Origin: Escherichia phage T4
Direction: 5' to 3' (one strand)
Sequence record: NC_000866.4
Length of the DNA stretch: 64,000 nucleotides
Positions within the stretch are counted from its first letter, which is position 1, and each line of letters opens with the position of its first letter. The notes under the pieces are model-generated. The model was not told where the DNA came from and searched no databases. It was given only the letters and a program-made list of their open reading frames with translations. Shown in pieces: positions 34,503-40,530 of the stretch. The position numbers and the translations under genes were made by a program.

Positions 34503-35490
<988 letters not shown>

Positions 35491-35651
35491 TCAGTGATAA
35501 AGTTATTTAAATTTTGAGCATATTTCTTTTCATCAAAAATCTTTTGCTGTCTGCGTAACCGCCATGGCATTTCAATGAACATACGCCATATCCCTAGATA
35601 ATACCGCTGCTGTAAAAATATTAACAAGTATAGTTAAAAGAATCCAATCGC

Positions 35652-35960
35652 CTATTCTGTCCATTGGATTTTTATAAAAAAGTAAAATACGAATGATGAT
35701 ATAGGAAGACTAATGATATACCACAGAAGAACCTTCTTATCTGTGAACCAATCAGCATTCGTTAACTTAGCGCGACCATTTTGAATACACACGAATTTAT
35801 CATCTGTTACAGTAAATGGCTTAGCTGCTTGATATCCCATTCTAAACTCCCTAATTAATCGTTTCTTTGTATCTTCGGAACAACCATTCCAATCAACTCT
35901 ATCAACTGGAATGCCATCATCCCCATCATCTAAATCATACCAGCGAGTTTTTAAAATCAT
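35652..35960 (-). CDS. hypothetical protein with C-terminal membrane anchor (e.2-like)
   Basis: 102 aa ORF. Confidence 0.5.
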   Translation of the reverse strand: MILKTRWYDLDDGDDGIPVDRVDWNGCSEDTKKRLIREFRMGYQAAKPFTVTDDKFVCIQNGRAKLTNADWFTDKKVLLWYIISLPISSFVFYFFIKIQWTE

Positions 35961-36319
35961 TTAATTTTCCTGCAATCAATCACAAACTCTTTCATTGATT
36001 CATTTTCAATATAAGACATGTAGCTATTATATTCTTTTAATTGTATTTTGTAATCCTTTTTTCTTTGCCAATTTATTTTAAAATTATCATAATGAAAATA
36101 TAAAATGATACCAAAGAATGAAAACAATGAAATAATTTTAGTATAACAAAGCTCGCTCCAAACTTCTATTATATCTACTGTACCACTGATTTTTAAAATA
36201 AAACAGTCAATTAATAGTCCAATAAGACTACCTGTAAGAGCTGCAGCCAACGCCACAGCAAAAATTAAAAATGACTCAGAAAACGAATATTTGACTTTAT
36301 TTAGCTTTGGCTTTTGCAT
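35957..36319 (-). CDS. hypothetical membrane protein (e.3-like)
   Basis: 120 aa with two hydrophobic helices. Confidence 0.5.
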   Translation of the reverse strand: MQKPKLNKVKYSFSESFLIFAVALAAALTGSLIGLLIDCFILKISGTVDIIEVWSELCYTKIISLFSFFGIILYFHYDNFKINWQRKKDYKIQLKEYNSYMSYIENESMKEFVIDCRKIK

Positions 36320-36714
36320 CGTGATTCCTTAACAAATTTCATAATTTCATTAAATTCATACTCAGCAAGTTTAAGCTGGTGTTCCTTTTTAATCTTTTTG
36401 CACTGGGCTTTCCAATCACGTACGCGTTTACGATAATGTCTTCCTTGATACCAGTATCCTATCCAATTTACGGGTACTAATAAAAATGGAACTACCAATG
36501 GAAGAGTTAGCATTAACATAATTATTACGCCAGAATCAATATCAGTCATAACATCTAAAACACCTCCAATAATCAATAGAATTACAAATGATATAGCTAT
36601 CACAGGACCTATTAATACATCAGTAGAAATTATCTGGCGCTTTAATTCATACTTCAAAGGTTTACTTGGAAGGTATAGTGATGGCTTTGACATATTCTCT
36701 ACATTCCTTAACAA
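36301..36714 (-). CDS. hypothetical membrane protein (e.4-like)
   Basis: 137 aa with two hydrophobic helices. Confidence 0.5.
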   Translation of the reverse strand: MLRNVENMSKPSLYLPSKPLKYELKRQIISTDVLIGPVIAISFVILLIIGGVLDVMTDIDSGVIIMLMLTLPLVVPFLLVPVNWIGYWYQGRHYRKRVRDWKAQCKKIKKEHQLKLAEYEFNEIMKFVKESRCKSQS

Positions 36715-37270
36715 ATTTTTCTAGTAATAAATCACTTTCAAAATTAGGATTTTCCACTAATTTATCAAAAAGATCATCAACAATATTCAAGATATTTCTT
36801 TTACTAAGAATACGTTTATTTTCATGCTTCGTTTCAGAATCAACTATAAGAGTAAAGAAATATTTCTTTCCCTGAAATTTTACCGTAGTATCAATATAAA
36901 ATAAATTTGACTTTTGTAAATTACGTTTAAACCATGCGTCACTTAAACTATAAACACCGAGATAATCAAAATCGTCGTTTAAATAACAAACTGACCATTC
37001 AGGAGAAATGAAATCAGTAAATTCAACATCAAAATCACATGTCAATGAATGAATTGATTCAATACTGTTAATAAGTATTCCAGGACGTATTAAAGACTTT
37101 TTACCTCTGGAAAATCTTCCAGAAAGACTTTCATCAGTTTCATATGAAGAACCCCAATAATAATTACGTCCTTTTGCCATATGTTTAAGAGCATTTAGTA
37201 ATTGGTCTGGAACATCAACGTGTCTTTGGAACTCTTCAAACATTGAATTGAAATCACTTTGCATTTTCAT
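36662..37270 (-). CDS. hypothetical protein (e.5-like)
   Basis: 202 aa ORF. Confidence 0.5.
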   Translation of the reverse strand: MKMQSDFNSMFEEFQRHVDVPDQLLNALKHMAKGRNYYWGSSYETDESLSGRFSRGKKSLIRPGILINSIESIHSLTCDFDVEFTDFISPEWSVCYLNDDFDYLGVYSLSDAWFKRNLQKSNLFYIDTTVKFQGKKYFFTLIVDSETKHENKRILSKRNILNIVDDLFDKLVENPNFESDLLLEKFVKECREYVKAITIPSK

Positions 37271-37311
37271 TCCTATTTACTCCAAGTAATAGGGGCCGAA
37301 GCCCCTTATCA

Positions 37312-37905
37312 TTATTTCAGAGAATTAATATATTCCTGAACATCGGCAGAGGTAGTTTCAACCCCAGAAATATTACCATTAAAGGTTTCAACTCGAGCAA
37401 GAGTATCTTCAATATCAACCTTAGTCAGTGCTGCAATTTCAACTACATCATCAGCAGTACTAATTCCAAGGGCATTTGCTGCACGAGTTTCACGGATATA
37501 TTCCAATTTAACTGCAAGTTCTTGGCGAGCATCATCTAACTCAACTACTTTCTTGGCGATTTCAATTCGCATTTCAGCATAACCATCAGCTTTAGTAGTC
37601 AGCTGTTCAGCTGTTCGACGATATAGCAAGCCGAGTTTAGCATGCATTGTTACATCTTGACCTTCGGAAAGAAGCTTGCGAATTTCACGCTCTTTTGATT
37701 CGGCCTGTTTATTCTTTTCAACAATAAGTTCACGAATACGTTTTTCTTCATTAATAGATTTAACAGAAGCAGTTTTTAGGTCTTTAATTTTATCAAGTAG
37801 TTTTGCTGCTGCAGCAGTATACTGTTCTTCAACAGATAGATTTTTAGCCATTGCAGAACCAAGTTTAGTGCGAATAAACTCAACAATTTTCTTCAGTGTG
37901 TTCAT
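37312..37905 (-). CDS. coiled-coil protein, possibly PspA/IM30-like (e.6-like)
   Basis: 197 aa, long heptad-rich helices; PspA similarity is an impression, not verified. Confidence 0.5.
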
Positions 37906-37937: not shown

Positions 37938-37967
37938 ATAATATCACGTTTCTAATAGATTGTAAAC
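37938..37967 (-). promoter_or_regulatory. T4-type early promoter
   Basis: Minus strand GTTTAC-18-TATTAT upstream of e.6-like ORF. Confidence 0.6.
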
Positions 37968-38303
37968 TTATTCTTCGTCTAGCTCGTCGATAAAGGCGTT
38001 GATGGCCTCGATAATGGCATCATTGATAGCCAATAAAATAAAATCATCGTCAGTACCTTTAGAAGATTCTAAAGCATTGATATATGCTTGGTTGACGAGT
38101 TCCCAAGCCTTTTTAAAATAAGGAGCTTCATCATCAGGACAAATATCCCGCACGCCTTCAAAGATACGTTTGGCATAATCTAACACCCATTGTACAGGCA
38201 TGTTTTGAGAACGTTCGTTAAACTCTTTAAAGTCCTTAGATTCAAAAAGCTCTTCAGGATAATTATTTCTATTACAAAAAGCTTTACTAAAGTTACGTTT
38301 CAT
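37968..38303 (-). CDS. hypothetical acidic protein (e.7-like)
   Basis: 111 aa ORF downstream of early promoter 38330-38359. Confidence 0.5.
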   Translation of the reverse strand: MKRNFSKAFCNRNNYPEELFESKDFKEFNERSQNMPVQWVLDYAKRIFEGVRDICPDDEAPYFKKAWELVNQAYINALESSKGTDDDFILLAINDAIIEAINAFIDELDEE

Positions 38304-38359: not shown

Positions 38360-38623
38360 TTATTTCATATTATTGAAATATTCTTCTGCGATTTCGTCGT
38401 TATCATGGTAAACTTTAGAAGACAGTTTAACATAACTTTCAGCAGTGAACATGTTAATCACAACCTTTACAGTATACCACTGACCGTCTTCATTACCCAT
38501 TACTGCGTAAGTTTCAAACATCGGATGGTCAGGACCGATAACTTTAATATCATTCACCGTACGACCGAAATCTTCTGAAACACATTTCATAAAGAAGTTG
38601 AAAAGTTCACCGTAATTATCCAT
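38360..38623 (-). CDS. hypothetical protein (e.8-like)
   Basis: Start trimmed to MDNYGELF downstream of early promoter 38667-38696. Confidence 0.5.
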   Translation of the reverse strand: MDNYGELFNFFMKCVSEDFGRTVNDIKVIGPDHPMFETYAVMGNEDGQWYTVKVVINMFTAESYVKLSSKVYHDNDEIAEEYFNNMK

Positions 38624-38864: not shown

Positions 38865-39180
38865 GCGGCAACCTTGTCGGGGTTCCACCTGCCAAGGCAA
38901 GTGTTTGTACGAAACGCCGGGATTCGAACCCGGTTATTAAGTAGTTGACGCTACTCAATATTTTTAAAAGGCCATATCTCAACCATATCCGAACGTTCCG
39001 TCAAAAACGCTACTCGGCTTACGGCAAAGATATTTCCTCGAATCGATAATTTGGTGCGCCGTTTCTGCTGTGATGTAAGAGGGCATCAATAAACGCAAAG
39101 ATTATTAACGCAATTCCTTACTCAGGGAACCATCAGTCCGACGACTTACCGGTAGCGACCCGGTTTCTCATTTGGTATCC
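38865..39180 (-). ncRNA. stable small RNAs of the tRNA cluster (T4 species 1 / species 2-like), boundaries approximate
   Basis: No ORF; tRNA-like T-arm ccgggttcgaatcccgg and an encoded ...gcgcacca 3-prime end; lies between tRNA-Arg and the cluster terminator, as T4 rnaC/rnaD. Confidence 0.5.
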
Positions 39181-39182
39181 CG

Positions 39183-39257
39183 CCCTGGGATCGAACCAGG
39201 ACCGCAAACTTAGAAGGATCGTATGCTATCCATTACACCAGCGGGACGTAATTTAAA
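39183..39257 (-). tRNA. tRNA-Arg: tRNA-Arg (anticodon UCU)
   Basis: Minus-strand gtcccgctggtgtaatggatagcatacgatccttctaagtttgcggtcctggttcgatcccagggcgggatacca; cloverleaf, encoded CCA. Confidence 0.85.
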
Positions 39258-39918
39258 ATTTCATTTTTCGACCTTTAAACCATCCTTCTGGAATTGGGTC
39301 AGTTTTCTTAATACGTTTAGAAACTTTTTCATCTAATGAATGAATCCACATCATACCGAATTGGGAATTCTTTTCACCTTTCTGGTGATTATTTTTGGCG
39401 TGAGATTCTTTCATTTTATTAATAGTTTCAGGAGTATGATGCTTATTTAGAAATCTGCTATTATTTAAAAATTTTTCCCTGTATTCAGGAGTTGACCACA
39501 AACGTTTAAATACATTTGAACCAATTTTACGATATTTTTCTTGAAGTAAAATATCATTTTCAAAACGTGACTTAAACGATTTAGCTCCTTTTAAGCTAGC
39601 ATCTTTCTTCTGGTTTAGCATTCCAGGAATATTTACATGATCCCATCCACCTTCACCGCCAAGTTTTAAATTATACACATCTGGTCTATTTAAAAACTCT
39701 TCTGTGACAATATTTTTCTCGGCTTCAAGCATAGATTCTTTATCGTCAAAATACTCTAATATTTCTTTAGAAAAATTTTCTATACCATATTTATCTTGGG
39801 CTCTTTTTAATAATTTACCAGAACCCATATATCCATCATCTAAATTTTCGGTAGAATGCACACCAATATAAATTTTATTATTAATTTTATTTGTTATTTT
39901 ATAAGTGTAATAGAACAT
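39253..39918 (-). CDS. segB: GIY-YIG homing endonuclease SegB
   Basis: 221 aa; YYTYKITNKINNKIYIGVHS...GYMGSG; embedded in the tRNA cluster as in T4. Confidence 0.85.
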   Translation of the reverse strand: MFYYTYKITNKINNKIYIGVHSTENLDDGYMGSGKLLKRAQDKYGIENFSKEILEYFDDKESMLEAEKNIVTEEFLNRPDVYNLKLGGEGGWDHVNIPGMLNQKKDASLKGAKSFKSRFENDILLQEKYRKIGSNVFKRLWSTPEYREKFLNNSRFLNKHHTPETINKMKESHAKNNHQKGEKNSQFGMMWIHSLDEKVSKRIKKTDPIPEGWFKGRKMKF

Positions 39919-39959
39919 AAATATCTCCTATTTCTAAGAGTATTTATGTTCTCAAAATA

Positions 39960-40033
39960 TGACCCAGACCAGATTTGAACTGGTAACCTTTCCCTTATGA
40001 GGGGACTGCTGCTAACCATTGAGCTACAGGGCC
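39960..40033 (-). tRNA. tRNA-Ile: tRNA-Ile (anticodon CAU type)
   Basis: Minus-strand ggccctgtagctcaatggttagcagcagtcccctcataaggg...ggttcaaatc...; anticodon loop ctcataa. Confidence 0.75.
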
Positions 40034-40034
40034 T

Positions 40035-40110
40035 TGGTGCTGATTGACGGAATCGAACCGCCGACATCCTCATTACAAGTGAGGTGCTCTACCTACTGAG
40101 CTAAATCAGC
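40035..40110 (-). tRNA. tRNA-Thr: tRNA-Thr (anticodon UGU)
   Basis: Minus-strand gctgatttagctcagtaggtagagcacctcacttgtaatgagg...ggttcgattcc...aatcagcacca. Confidence 0.85.
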
Positions 40111-40117
40111 AAAATTA

Positions 40118-40204
40118 CGGAGGCGATAGGATTTGAACCTATGAGTCGCCGGAGCGACTGCCGGTTTTCAAGACCGGTGCATTAAACCACTCTGCCACGC
40201 CTCC
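40118..40204 (-). tRNA. tRNA-Ser: tRNA-Ser (anticodon UGA), long variable arm
   Basis: Minus-strand ggaggcgtggcagagtggtttaatgcaccggtcttgaaaaccgg...ggttcaaatcctatcgcctcc. Confidence 0.85.
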
Positions 40205-40206
40205 AG

Positions 40207-40280
40207 TCTCCATACAAGGATTTGAACCTTGGACCTCCTGATCCCAAATCAGGCGCTCTACCAAACTGAGCTACACGGAG
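40207..40280 (-). tRNA. tRNA-Pro: tRNA-Pro (anticodon UGG)
   Basis: Minus-strand ctccgtgtagctcagtttggtagagcgcctgatttgggatcagg...ggttcaaatcc. Confidence 0.85.
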
Positions 40281-40290
40281 TAAATTAAAT

Positions 40291-40364
<74 letters not shown>

Positions 40365-40369
40365 AAATT

Positions 40370-40456
40370 TGGTGCGAGAAGTGGGACTCGAACCCACAAG
40401 GAAATCATTCCGCAGCATTTTAAGTGCTGTGCCTTTACCAATTTGACCATTCTCGC
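40370..40456 (-). tRNA. tRNA-Leu: tRNA-Leu (anticodon UAA), long variable arm
   Basis: Minus-strand gcgagaatggtcaaattggtaaaggcacagcacttaaaatgctg...gggttcgagtcccacttctcgcacca. Confidence 0.85.
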
Positions 40457-40457
40457 G

Positions 40458-40530
40458 CTGGGAATAAAGGACTCGAACCTTTGCATCTAGCAGTCAAAGT
40501 GCTATGCCTTACCAACTTGGCTAATTCCCA
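40458..40530 (-). tRNA. tRNA-Gln: tRNA-Gln (anticodon UUG)
   Basis: Minus-strand tgggaattagccaagttggtaaggcatagcactttgactgctag...ggttcgagtcctttattccca. Confidence 0.85.

Follow-up and report, generated by a model that had tools for sequence, protein, structure and literature searches.

PspA, or 'phage shock protein A', owes its name to its induction by a phage protein and represents the bacterial branch of the ESCRT-III superfamily of membrane-remodelling proteins. The kinship between the PspA family and ESCRT-III is well established (PMC8281802 and related papers), and in Bacillus subtilis the PspA homolog LiaH is encoded beside LiaI, a small protein with several transmembrane (TM) segments that anchors LiaH to the membrane (PMC11237479). 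The survey of how the PSP (phage-shock-protein) machinery evolved leaves phages out (PMC11237479), and a phage homolog of PspA has been proposed once, by Gendre et al. in 2022, who used HHpred to assign a Kuttervirus member of phrog_1203 to PspA, treated it as a peculiarity of that phage and suggested a role against abortive infection (Abi) (PMC9409062). The gene considered here is e.6 of Escherichia phage T4, which belongs to the same PHROG and lies in a window of 64,000 nucleotides (nt) of sequence record NC_000866.4; the surrounding 4.3 kb is 99.8% identical to T4 records such as HM137666. The e.6 product of 197 amino acids (aa) very probably belongs, in strongly diverged form, to the PspA/IM30(Vipp1)/ESCRT-III superfamily, and the gene is followed by a conserved partner gene, e.5, and by the membrane-protein genes e.4, e.3 and e.2, whose products have a C-terminal tail in common with e.5.

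A preliminary description of this region, made from the DNA letters alone, likened the 197-aa coiled-coil protein to PspA/IM30-like membrane-stress proteins, an impression that is now supported by homologs passing the Pfam threshold for PF04012 (PspA_IM30), by profile searches against empirical nulls, by hhalign, and by AlphaFold2 (AF2) modelling followed by Foldseek. On its own, the T4 protein reveals little of this kinship. Direct scans of e.3, e.4, e.5 and e.6 against Pfam, PHROGs and NCBIfam return just PHROGs of 'unknown function' and noise: the sole PHROG match of e.6 is phrog_1203, nothing relevant appears in NCBIfam, and PF04012, with a gathering score of 33.9 bits, is not matched even at E ≤ 1. 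When 1.84 billion representative proteins were searched exhaustively by profile, a compact e.6 family emerged, comprising 45 clusters of proteins that all measure about 200 aa, and PF04012 is matched by 5 of 38 diverse members in alignments that extend from residue 2–7 to model position 142–158. Two of these members exceed the threshold, P0068 with 39.0 bits (E = 8.9e-10) and P0066 with 35.1 bits, and P0069, P0067 and P0062 give collinear matches below it. In the same 1.84 billion proteins, a profile of T4-proximal e.6 sequences (A1) recovers P0066 (E ~ 3e-21) and P0068 (E ~ 3e-20) over their full length, and BLASTP aligns T4 e.6 with P0068 over 194 residues at 25% identity with one gap (E = 1e-13). 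These bridging proteins, encoded by Ackermannviridae, are true homologs of e.6, which thereby joins PF04012 by transitive homology through its full-length homologs P0068 and P0066.

A second profile, built from the diverse e.6 family (A2), reaches the superfamily directly. Searched against all PDB sequences, it finds Vipp1/PspA chains as eight of the best nine matches (E 1e-4 to 4e-3), with profile positions 1–146 aligned to Vipp1 1–147 at E = 1e-4, although a prefoldin stands in the same search at E = 9e-4 and coiled coils inflate profile scores. Because of this inflation, scores were compared with an empirical null of 4,500 shuffles of full, heptad-phase-preserving and 7-residue-block types. 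The A2 profile scores 28.0 bits against Synechocystis Vipp1(1–149), compared with a shuffle maximum of 11.3 bits, and the 12.0 bits obtained by A1 against Vipp1 are reached by none of the 4,500 shuffles. Moreover, hhalign matches the e.6 family to enterobacterial PspA over 170 columns (E = 6e-5), whereas the reversed control yields 23 columns at E = 0.19. The profile match to E. coli PspA alone is weak (5.5 bits, p ~ 0.001–0.003 in the shuffle test), and neither BLASTP of e.6 or P0068 nor the A1 profile gives a significant match to that protein. Since A1 finds Vipp1 among PDB sequences at E ~ 1 only, the link to PspA/Vipp1 depended on the distant family members supplied by the exhaustive search. 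Snf7 (PF03357) is not among the 25 families most frequently matched by the 38 members at E ≤ 10, and it did not appear when 21 members were scanned one by one at E ≤ 1.

The AF2 model of e.6 (predicted local distance difference test, pLDDT, 74.6) is almost wholly helical and contains a long antiparallel hairpin. Its helices (residues 3–22, 25–80, 86–145, 151–160, 166–172 and 186–196) follow the order of the superfamily, namely α0, a long α1–α2/3 hairpin and short C-terminal helices, with pLDDT values of 80–95 in the hairpin and below 50 at the ends. The hairpin is the predicted equivalent of ESCRT-III α1 and α2/3 and is collinear with Vipp1 and with PF04012 positions 2–146. In a Foldseek search with this model, the best eight PDB matches are all Vipp1 (probability 1.0, TM-score 0.42–0.51), followed by archaeal CdvB2. 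Taken with the Pfam, profile and hhalign results, this helix order and these Foldseek matches speak against the outcome that the preliminary description had named as fatal to its suggestion, a predicted structure lacking any PspA/ESCRT-III-like fold. The N-terminal helix, which aligns with Vipp1 residues 1–24 in the A2 profile, is predicted to be amphipathic, with a net charge of +3 and a hydrophobic moment of 0.45 (0.49 in PspA and 0.61 in Vipp1), a value reached by 6.8% of shuffles and computed for a segment of pLDDT below 50.

Among characterized proteins, Vipp1/IM30 (Synechocystis sll0617; PDB 7o3w, 6zvr and 8qfv) is the best profile and Foldseek match of e.6, with an alignment running from residue 1 to about residue 146 and spanning α0 and the α1–α2/3 hairpin. 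Beyond the hairpin, an LG-containing loop and the ensuing aromatic-bearing helix (ARVETF in e.6, AFERME in Vipp1) appear to be equivalent in the two proteins, and hhalign matches the same ARVETF locally to ARFESF of PspA. Nevertheless, e.6 is shorter than Vipp1 (197 versus 267 aa), lacks the C-terminal α6 extension, shares about 17% identity with it, and is the gene of a virulent enterobacterial phage with no thylakoid context. E. coli PspA falls in the same Pfam family by the transitive route, despite the direct similarity being insignificant; its hairpin, which we take from PDB 4WHE to span residues ~25–85 and 90–144, would correspond to residues 25–80 and 86–145 of e.6. Compared with eukaryotic and archaeal ESCRT-III proteins (Snf7, CHMP1 and CdvB2), e.6 shows no Snf7 Pfam signal and has no Vps4-like ATPase nearby.

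The gene that accompanies e.6 most faithfully is e.5. In 40 related loci retrieved from IMG/VR with A1 as query, whose open reading frames (ORFs) were searched with iterated hidden Markov models (HMMs), the ORF directly 3' of e.6 is an e.5 homolog in 39–40 cases, even where e.6 identity falls to about 50%, and e.5 is duplicated in some of them. Drift of the iterated e.5 HMM is unlikely because nearly all of its matches adjoin e.6, either at the position right after it or in tandem beside that position; the exceptions are three small ORFs about 2 kb farther downstream, matched at a looser threshold. Tandem copies of e.5 follow e.6 in Aeromonas-type phages of about 230 kb (L029:6628-7927, L040:6651-7932 and L041:6650-7923), in which no membrane protein of the e.3/e.4 type follows within 3 kb. 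Interrupted genes also occur in some metagenomic and phage genomes: e.6 is split in two at L044:5998-6586 and forms an N-terminally truncated ORF at L028:6193-6552, and e.5 is split at L006:6636-7251 and L033:6656-7179, all of which may represent occasional loss or assembly errors. The families of e.3, e.4 and e.5 (phrog_2330, phrog_2604 and phrog_2607) are phage-specific.

The products of e.4 and e.3 each contain two hydrophobic segments, at residues 31–49 and 60–78 of e.4 and at residues 19–37 and 57–75 of e.3. From the charge distribution, with a basic N-terminus and an acidic periplasmic loop, both are predicted to adopt an N-in/C-in topology with two TM segments and a cytoplasmic tail that is basic and some 45–50 residues long; this topology prediction was one of the checks proposed in the preliminary description. 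The latter had announced two small double-helix membrane proteins of 120 and 137 aa, and it was right about the two hydrophobic segments and about the 120 aa of e.3. The second length does not hold, e.4 having 130 aa: the 137-aa version is a TTG-extended ORF in which the PHROG match begins at residue 8, and e.4 homologs measure 130–131 aa, in agreement with the annotated start. BLASTP aligns e.3 with e.4 over their full length (E = 0.002), e.3 cross-matches the PHROG of e.4, and iterative searches from e.3 and e.4 converge, sharing 46 of their 49 and 47 matches; by these measures, the two are paralogs. Members of this family follow e.5 in 32–34 of the 40 loci, in one to three copies.

In close relatives, e.2 encodes an intact two-TM protein of 162 aa (reference L005:4227-4715). 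In T4, the loss of 1 nt from an A-run (A6 to A5) breaks the gene and leaves e.2a, a product of 102 aa with one TM segment. About 75 nt downstream, the window carries a +1 insertion (TTATCTAGGG versus TTATCT-GGG) that is absent from T4T (L001) and restores the original frame; since it does so only after the deletion, stop codons lie between the two changes. The break in e.2 may go back to an accessory gene in decay, to variation among strains or in sequencing, or to a slippery site. The iterative search from e.2 did not converge (88 matches and still growing) and only the tail and the two TM segments are common to e.2 and the e.3/e.4 pair; therefore, no paralogy is claimed for e.2, which probably belongs to the tail-bearing set as well.

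The tail in question is a short motif, F(I/V)xxCR, near the C-terminus, which in the T4 window is confined to four consecutive genes, e.5, e.4 (as a variant), e.3 and e.2. Counted as F[VIL]xxCR within the last 30 residues across the related loci, it occurs in 37 of 44 e.5-type, 33 of 44 e.2-type and 12 of 50 e.3/e.4-type proteins, most of the other e.3/e.4-type proteins bearing variants such as FIKECK or FIKNVRRK. Of the other same-strand ORFs, 27 of 1212 carry it, these being additional small ORFs that belong to the same cluster, and of 654 opposite-strand ORFs none does. Further small ORFs with the tail (72–162 aa, no TM segment) lie about 2–3.5 kb downstream of e.6 in L011–L036, e.g., L011:9143-9472, L025:8665-8952 and L033:7828-8235, with variants such as FLEYCRS, FIKYCRGKHVS, FIRMCRKN and FIMQCRMRK; as these distal ORFs carry F(I/L)xxCR, the tail-bearing set is larger and more varied than e.2–e.5. 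Among the tandem e.5 copies of the Aeromonas-type phages, those of L029 keep the Arg of the tail (FIKECR and FVNECR), and it is replaced in those of L040 and L041 (FINYCIV, FVEYCIE, FVNYCIV and FVDYCVA). The possibility that the motif is an artefact of the ribosome-binding site of an overlapping next gene was considered and rejected as its main cause. Shine-Dalgarno-like 4-mers are present in just 19 of 109 cases, the distance from the motif to the next start codon varies, and the codons vary synonymously, with TGC and TGT in 61 and 48 Cys codons, all six Arg codons, and both TTT and TTC for Phe. The synonymous variation and the scarcity of Shine-Dalgarno-like 4-mers indicate selection at the protein level, with a possible minor ribosome-binding contribution from the enrichment of AGG/AGA among the Arg codons.

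A comparable arrangement exists in Ackermannviridae. There, the bridging homologs of e.6 are encoded by Kuttervirus and Taipeivirus, and phrog_1203 proteins such as Gp_125 of Salmonella phage SeF3a, that of vB_SentM_sal1, and T751_00030 of Klebsiella phage T751 are, by the homology described above, counterparts of T4 e.6 whose PspA signal, unlike that of T4 e.6, is still strong enough to pass Pfam. Their genes have gene 41 on one side and the DNA ligase gene on the other (uvsX–41...ligase region), unlike that of T4, which lies between e and the tRNA genes. As in T4, the PspA-like gene precedes genes whose products are membrane or small proteins and have an analogous motif near the C-terminus. 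BLASTP and the family HMMs detect no homology of these proteins to e.5, e.4 or e.3; yet, in four Ackermannviridae loci, the motif I[ILV]xxAR occurs near the C-terminus of the products of genes that immediately follow the PspA-like gene, in 6 of 78 same-strand ORFs, all of them in that position, and in none of 89 ORFs on the other strand. Thus, in two phage families, at differing locations and with differing sequences, a PspA-like gene is followed by genes whose products bear a hydrophobic-hydrophobic-x-x-(C/A)-R tail, and this recurrence is the best evidence that the e.6 group is a functional module.

With respect to partners, the locus recalls known systems without reproducing any of them. 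PspA is a peripheral effector at the inner membrane with small integral membrane partners, and e.6 likewise precedes genes for small proteins predicted to reside in the inner membrane. However, e.5, e.4 and e.3 belong to families unrelated to PspB/PspC, and no Pfam or NCBIfam match to PspB, PspC, PspF, LiaI/LiaF or Toastrack partners was found among them. The closest functional analogy for e.6 with e.4/e.3 would be LiaH–LiaI, from which the T4 locus differs in gene order, in the two TM segments of e.3 and e.4, which have no detectable similarity to the LiaI–LiaF-TM domain, and in e.5, a gene without counterpart there. In the MIM–MIT interaction of ESCRT-III, the motif is carried by the ESCRT-III subunit itself, whereas in T4 the tail is carried by the neighbouring proteins.

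The features of the locus are collected in Table 1. The 120-, 202- and 197-aa proteins that the preliminary description had placed between nudE and the tRNA cluster are indeed encoded there, as e.3, e.5 and e.6. The genes e.3–e.6 are flanked by e.2 on the nudE side and by e.7, e.8, rnaC and rnaD on the tRNA side. Early promoters had been expected for each part of the region; by consensus scan and reading of the sequence, good matches stand 5' of only e.6, e.7 and e.8, and not 5' of e.5, e.4, e.3 or e.2. The original T4 record (L13089, 'msp1–msp8') likewise marks −35/−10 signals only at e.6, e.7 and e.8, together with a putative stem_loop after e.6. The e.6 promoter, in contrast to the sigma-54/PspF control of pspA, is a phage early promoter of the sigma-70 type, with a TG directly 5' of its −10 hexamer and an AAGGA Shine-Dalgarno site downstream. 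Successive overlaps of e.5, e.4, e.3 and e.2 measure 32, 19 and 4 nt, and these genes look like one translationally coupled unit that is read through from the e.6 promoter. The gap of 41 nt between e.6 and e.5 holds a perfect GGGGC-UUCG-GCCCC tetraloop hairpin and then a weak U-tract (UAUUACUU), possibly a partial terminator or an element of mRNA stability. Early RNA for all four genes e.3–e.6 and their proteins have been detected in infected cells, the proteins being classed as early (e.4 and e.5), middle (e.6) and late (e.3) (PMC9697503 supplements). The hairpin may attenuate read-through or stabilize the e.6 message and could be related to the different timing of e.6 and of e.5/e.4.

Table 1. 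Features of the e.6 locus and its surroundings in the T4 window (positions count from the first letter of the window; empty cells, nothing recorded).
Feature	Position	Strand	Description
Gene e	34503-34997		T4 lysozyme ORF
nudE	35035-35490		
e.2 region	35472-35960	(-)	Broken in T4: e.2a 35652-35960; e.2b 35472-35582
e.2b tail	35484-35501	(-)	FITECR
e.3	35957-36319	(-)	120 aa; predicted N-in/C-in two-TM protein, paralog of e.4 by sequence comparison
e.3 tail	35969-35986	(-)	FVIDCR; protein end ...EFVIDCRKIK
e.4	36301-36693	(-)	130 aa, start ATG at 36693; predicted N-in/C-in two-TM protein, paralog of e.3 by sequence comparison
e.4 variant tail	36316-36336	(-)	FVKESRC; protein end ...KFVKESRCK...
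e.5	36662-37270	(-)	202 aa; soluble alpha/beta protein
e.5 tail	36698-36715	(-)	FVKECR; protein end ...KFVKECREYV...
GC-rich hairpin	37291-37306	(-)	AGGGGC-UUCG-GCCCCU, between e.6 and e.5
e.6	37312-37905	(-)	197 aa; very probably a divergent PspA/IM30(Vipp1)/ESCRT-III-superfamily protein (ORF, homology, profiles, AF2, Foldseek)
e.6 residues 25–145	37471-37833	(-)	Predicted helical hairpin: helix 25–80, turn 81–85, helix 86–145
e.6 residues 3–22	37840-37899	(-)	Predicted N-terminal amphipathic helix, equivalent of PspA/Vipp1 α0
e.6 early promoter	37938-37967	(-)	Sigma-70-type; GTTTACA, 17-nt spacer, TATTAT (consensus scan, sequence reading)
tRNA cluster	39173-40530		

Among the other neighbours, e.7 (37968-38303) and e.8 (38360-38623), located 5' of e.6 and each with its own early-promoter match, are poorly conserved: of the 40 related loci, e.7 was detected in 9 and e.8 in 12. 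A Pfam match of e.7 to an immunity protein of the Imm5-like kind is weak and not significant (E = 0.077). Within the tRNA cluster, ARAGORN reads 39960-40033 (-) as tRNA-Met (anticodon CAT), compared with tRNA-Ile in the T4 record. CAU anticodons read Ile once modified to lysidine, and the discrepancy is thus nothing anomalous but an ambiguity already known.

The e.6 family is stable in sequence length and is represented in 1,105 phage records, under names that say little of its nature. Its homologs are labelled 'hypothetical' or, in many GenBank/UniRef records, 'host specificity protein', a label that looks like a propagated annotation error and finds no support in the sequence and structure analyses, and a single GenBank record (vB_SentM_sal1) names its copy 'PspA/IM30 family protein'. 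Tables of T4 omics (2022, PMC9697503) and CRISPR interference (2025, PMC11879866) data give e.6 as unknown, and no paper linking T4 e.6 (UniProt P39224) to PspA was found in the literature searched. As far as can be told from that literature, the family assignment of T4 e.6 and its presence in 1,105 phage records are new, as are the conserved e.6–e.5 pair, the e.3/e.4 paralogy and the shared tail motif.

On balance, we favour a reading in which e.6 is a diverged PspA/Vipp1-like protein that is expressed from its own early promoter, followed by e.5, e.4, e.3 and, in phages with an intact copy, e.2 through read-through, and that has a role at the membrane. T4 shuts off host transcription, and the host sigma-54/PspF-dependent Psp response therefore cannot be induced during infection. 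The phage would supply e.6 as a substitute effector for this missing response. In such a mechanism, e.6 would attach to the inner membrane from the cytoplasmic side via its N-terminal amphipathic helix and polymerize through its helical hairpin, limiting proton leakage and keeping the membrane energized through DNA injection, superinfection, holin accumulation or attack by membrane-targeting host defences. The cytoplasmic F(I/V)xxCR tail could be a common docking peptide; the two-TM proteins e.4/e.3 would be anchors in the membrane or sensors, and the soluble e.5 an adaptor or regulator, roles that would resemble those of PspB/PspC for PspA and of LiaI for LiaH. This maintenance of the membrane and of its proton-motive force is proposed only tentatively in the form given. 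A bolder version, a self-contained ESCRT-III-type membrane-maintenance system of T4-like and Ackermannviridae phages in which an e.6 polymer is recruited or regulated through a docking peptide not described before, borne by a changing set of soluble (e.5) and two-TM (e.4, e.3 and e.2) adaptors, and seals the membrane against injection damage and against Abi effectors that form pores or depolarize, is at present unlikely. Knock-down of e.2 through e.8 has no effect on fitness in a laboratory host (CRISPRi-ART, PMC11879866 supplements), a result that is consistent with a conditional role for these genes; moreover, the sensitivity of the assay is limited, since lysozyme e was also scored 'Not Fit' (PMC11879866).

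The alternatives differ in how much of this they accept. Were e.6 merely analogous to PspA/Vipp1, that is, a generic antiparallel coiled-coil hairpin whose likeness is convergent or compositional, two family members should not stand above a curated Pfam threshold, nor should the alignments be anchored at residue 1 and remain collinear over more than 140 residues, taking in the non-coiled α0. With none of 4,500 shuffles near the real score, a failing reversed control, eight top Foldseek matches that are all Vipp1, and an independent HHpred call for phrog_1203 (PMC9409062), such convergence is very unlikely. If homology is granted, the neighbours could still be strangers: e.5, e.4 and e.3 would be unrelated genes of a hyperplastic region of small early genes, and the tail would descend from local duplication or serve as an e.6-independent signal, such as a degradation or targeting tag. 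Several observations weigh for this and against a common module. Genes of the e.3/e.4 type are missing in 6–8 of the 40 loci and the content after e.5 is very variable, a hairpin separates e.6 from e.5, the small tail ORFs of other phages lie kilobases from e.6, the proteins of e.3–e.6 differ in timing (PMC9697503), and CRISPRi-ART gives no phenotype (PMC11879866). On the other side stand e.5 directly after e.6 in nearly every locus even at about 50% e.6 identity, and the analogous tail after the Ackermannviridae PspA-like gene, despite its different location and proteins otherwise without detectable relationship. From these sequence comparisons, e.6, e.5 and the tail-bearing membrane proteins somewhat more probably than not form one functional module, and mere neighbourhood appears rather doubtful.

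Other readings retain the homology claim for e.6 and change its purpose. The protein could be a counter-defence factor, a membrane stabilizer selected to blunt Abi effectors that depolarize or perforate the membrane (Rex-like, AbiZ-like, transmembrane effectors of CBASS (antiphage signalling that relies on cyclic oligonucleotides) or of retrons, and bacterial gasdermins), or a decoy in PspA-linked immunity. Like typical anti-defence genes, e.6 is an accessory gene that is expressed early and can be dispensed with in a laboratory host, and the region 3' of it is highly variable among phages; such a purpose was suggested for the Kuttervirus homolog (PMC9409062), and a decoy would be in line with a Bacillus CBASS cyclase which is reported to be conjugated specifically to PspA, to be inactive in that state and to be freed on infection (bioRxiv 10.1101/2023.09.29.560134). 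Nevertheless, the very wide conservation of e.6 and its stable length are more in keeping with a housekeeping function during infection than with a gene caught in an arms race. Mutants of T4 in rII are still excluded by Rex despite carrying e.6, so that e.6 is not sufficient against Rex, and counter-defence as the main purpose is fairly unlikely. For superinfection exclusion, a role that the preliminary description had also considered, no evidence in either direction was found. The protein could also disturb the host Psp system by binding PspF or PspB/PspC or by co-polymerizing with PspA, thereby silencing or hijacking it. The hairpin region of PspA is used for partner binding, and the same region is present in e.6; the common superfamily and the early expression of e.6 (PMC9697503) would also suit such a mimic. 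However, the family is far closer to cyanobacterial Vipp1 than to enterobacterial PspA (28.0 versus 5.5 bits), which speaks against the host protein having been mimicked recently, and an antagonist of PspF would be redundant in view of the shut-off of host transcription by T4, all of which renders mimicry highly improbable.

If e.6 is indeed a PspA/Vipp1-like protein, T4, the best-studied of virulent phages, and more than 1,100 sequenced relatives encode their own diverged, early copy of PspA together with a conserved partner and membrane proteins, and a suggestion made in 2022 for a single Salmonella phage is extended to two whole phage families. This would offer a testable function for five T4 genes, e.2 through e.6, which recent T4 omics and CRISPRi tables carry as unknown, and a candidate answer to the old question of how the membrane of the infected cell stays energized after injection and superinfection and during lysis inhibition, when host genes are no longer expressed. 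Moreover, the tail may be a new motif by which bacterial ESCRT-III-like proteins recognize their partners. Should the function be protection from membrane-targeting defences, it would represent a new class of anti-defence mechanism, and the complete system, if it exists, would be the bacterial-virus counterpart of the ESCRT-III repair of gasdermin pores in animal cells.

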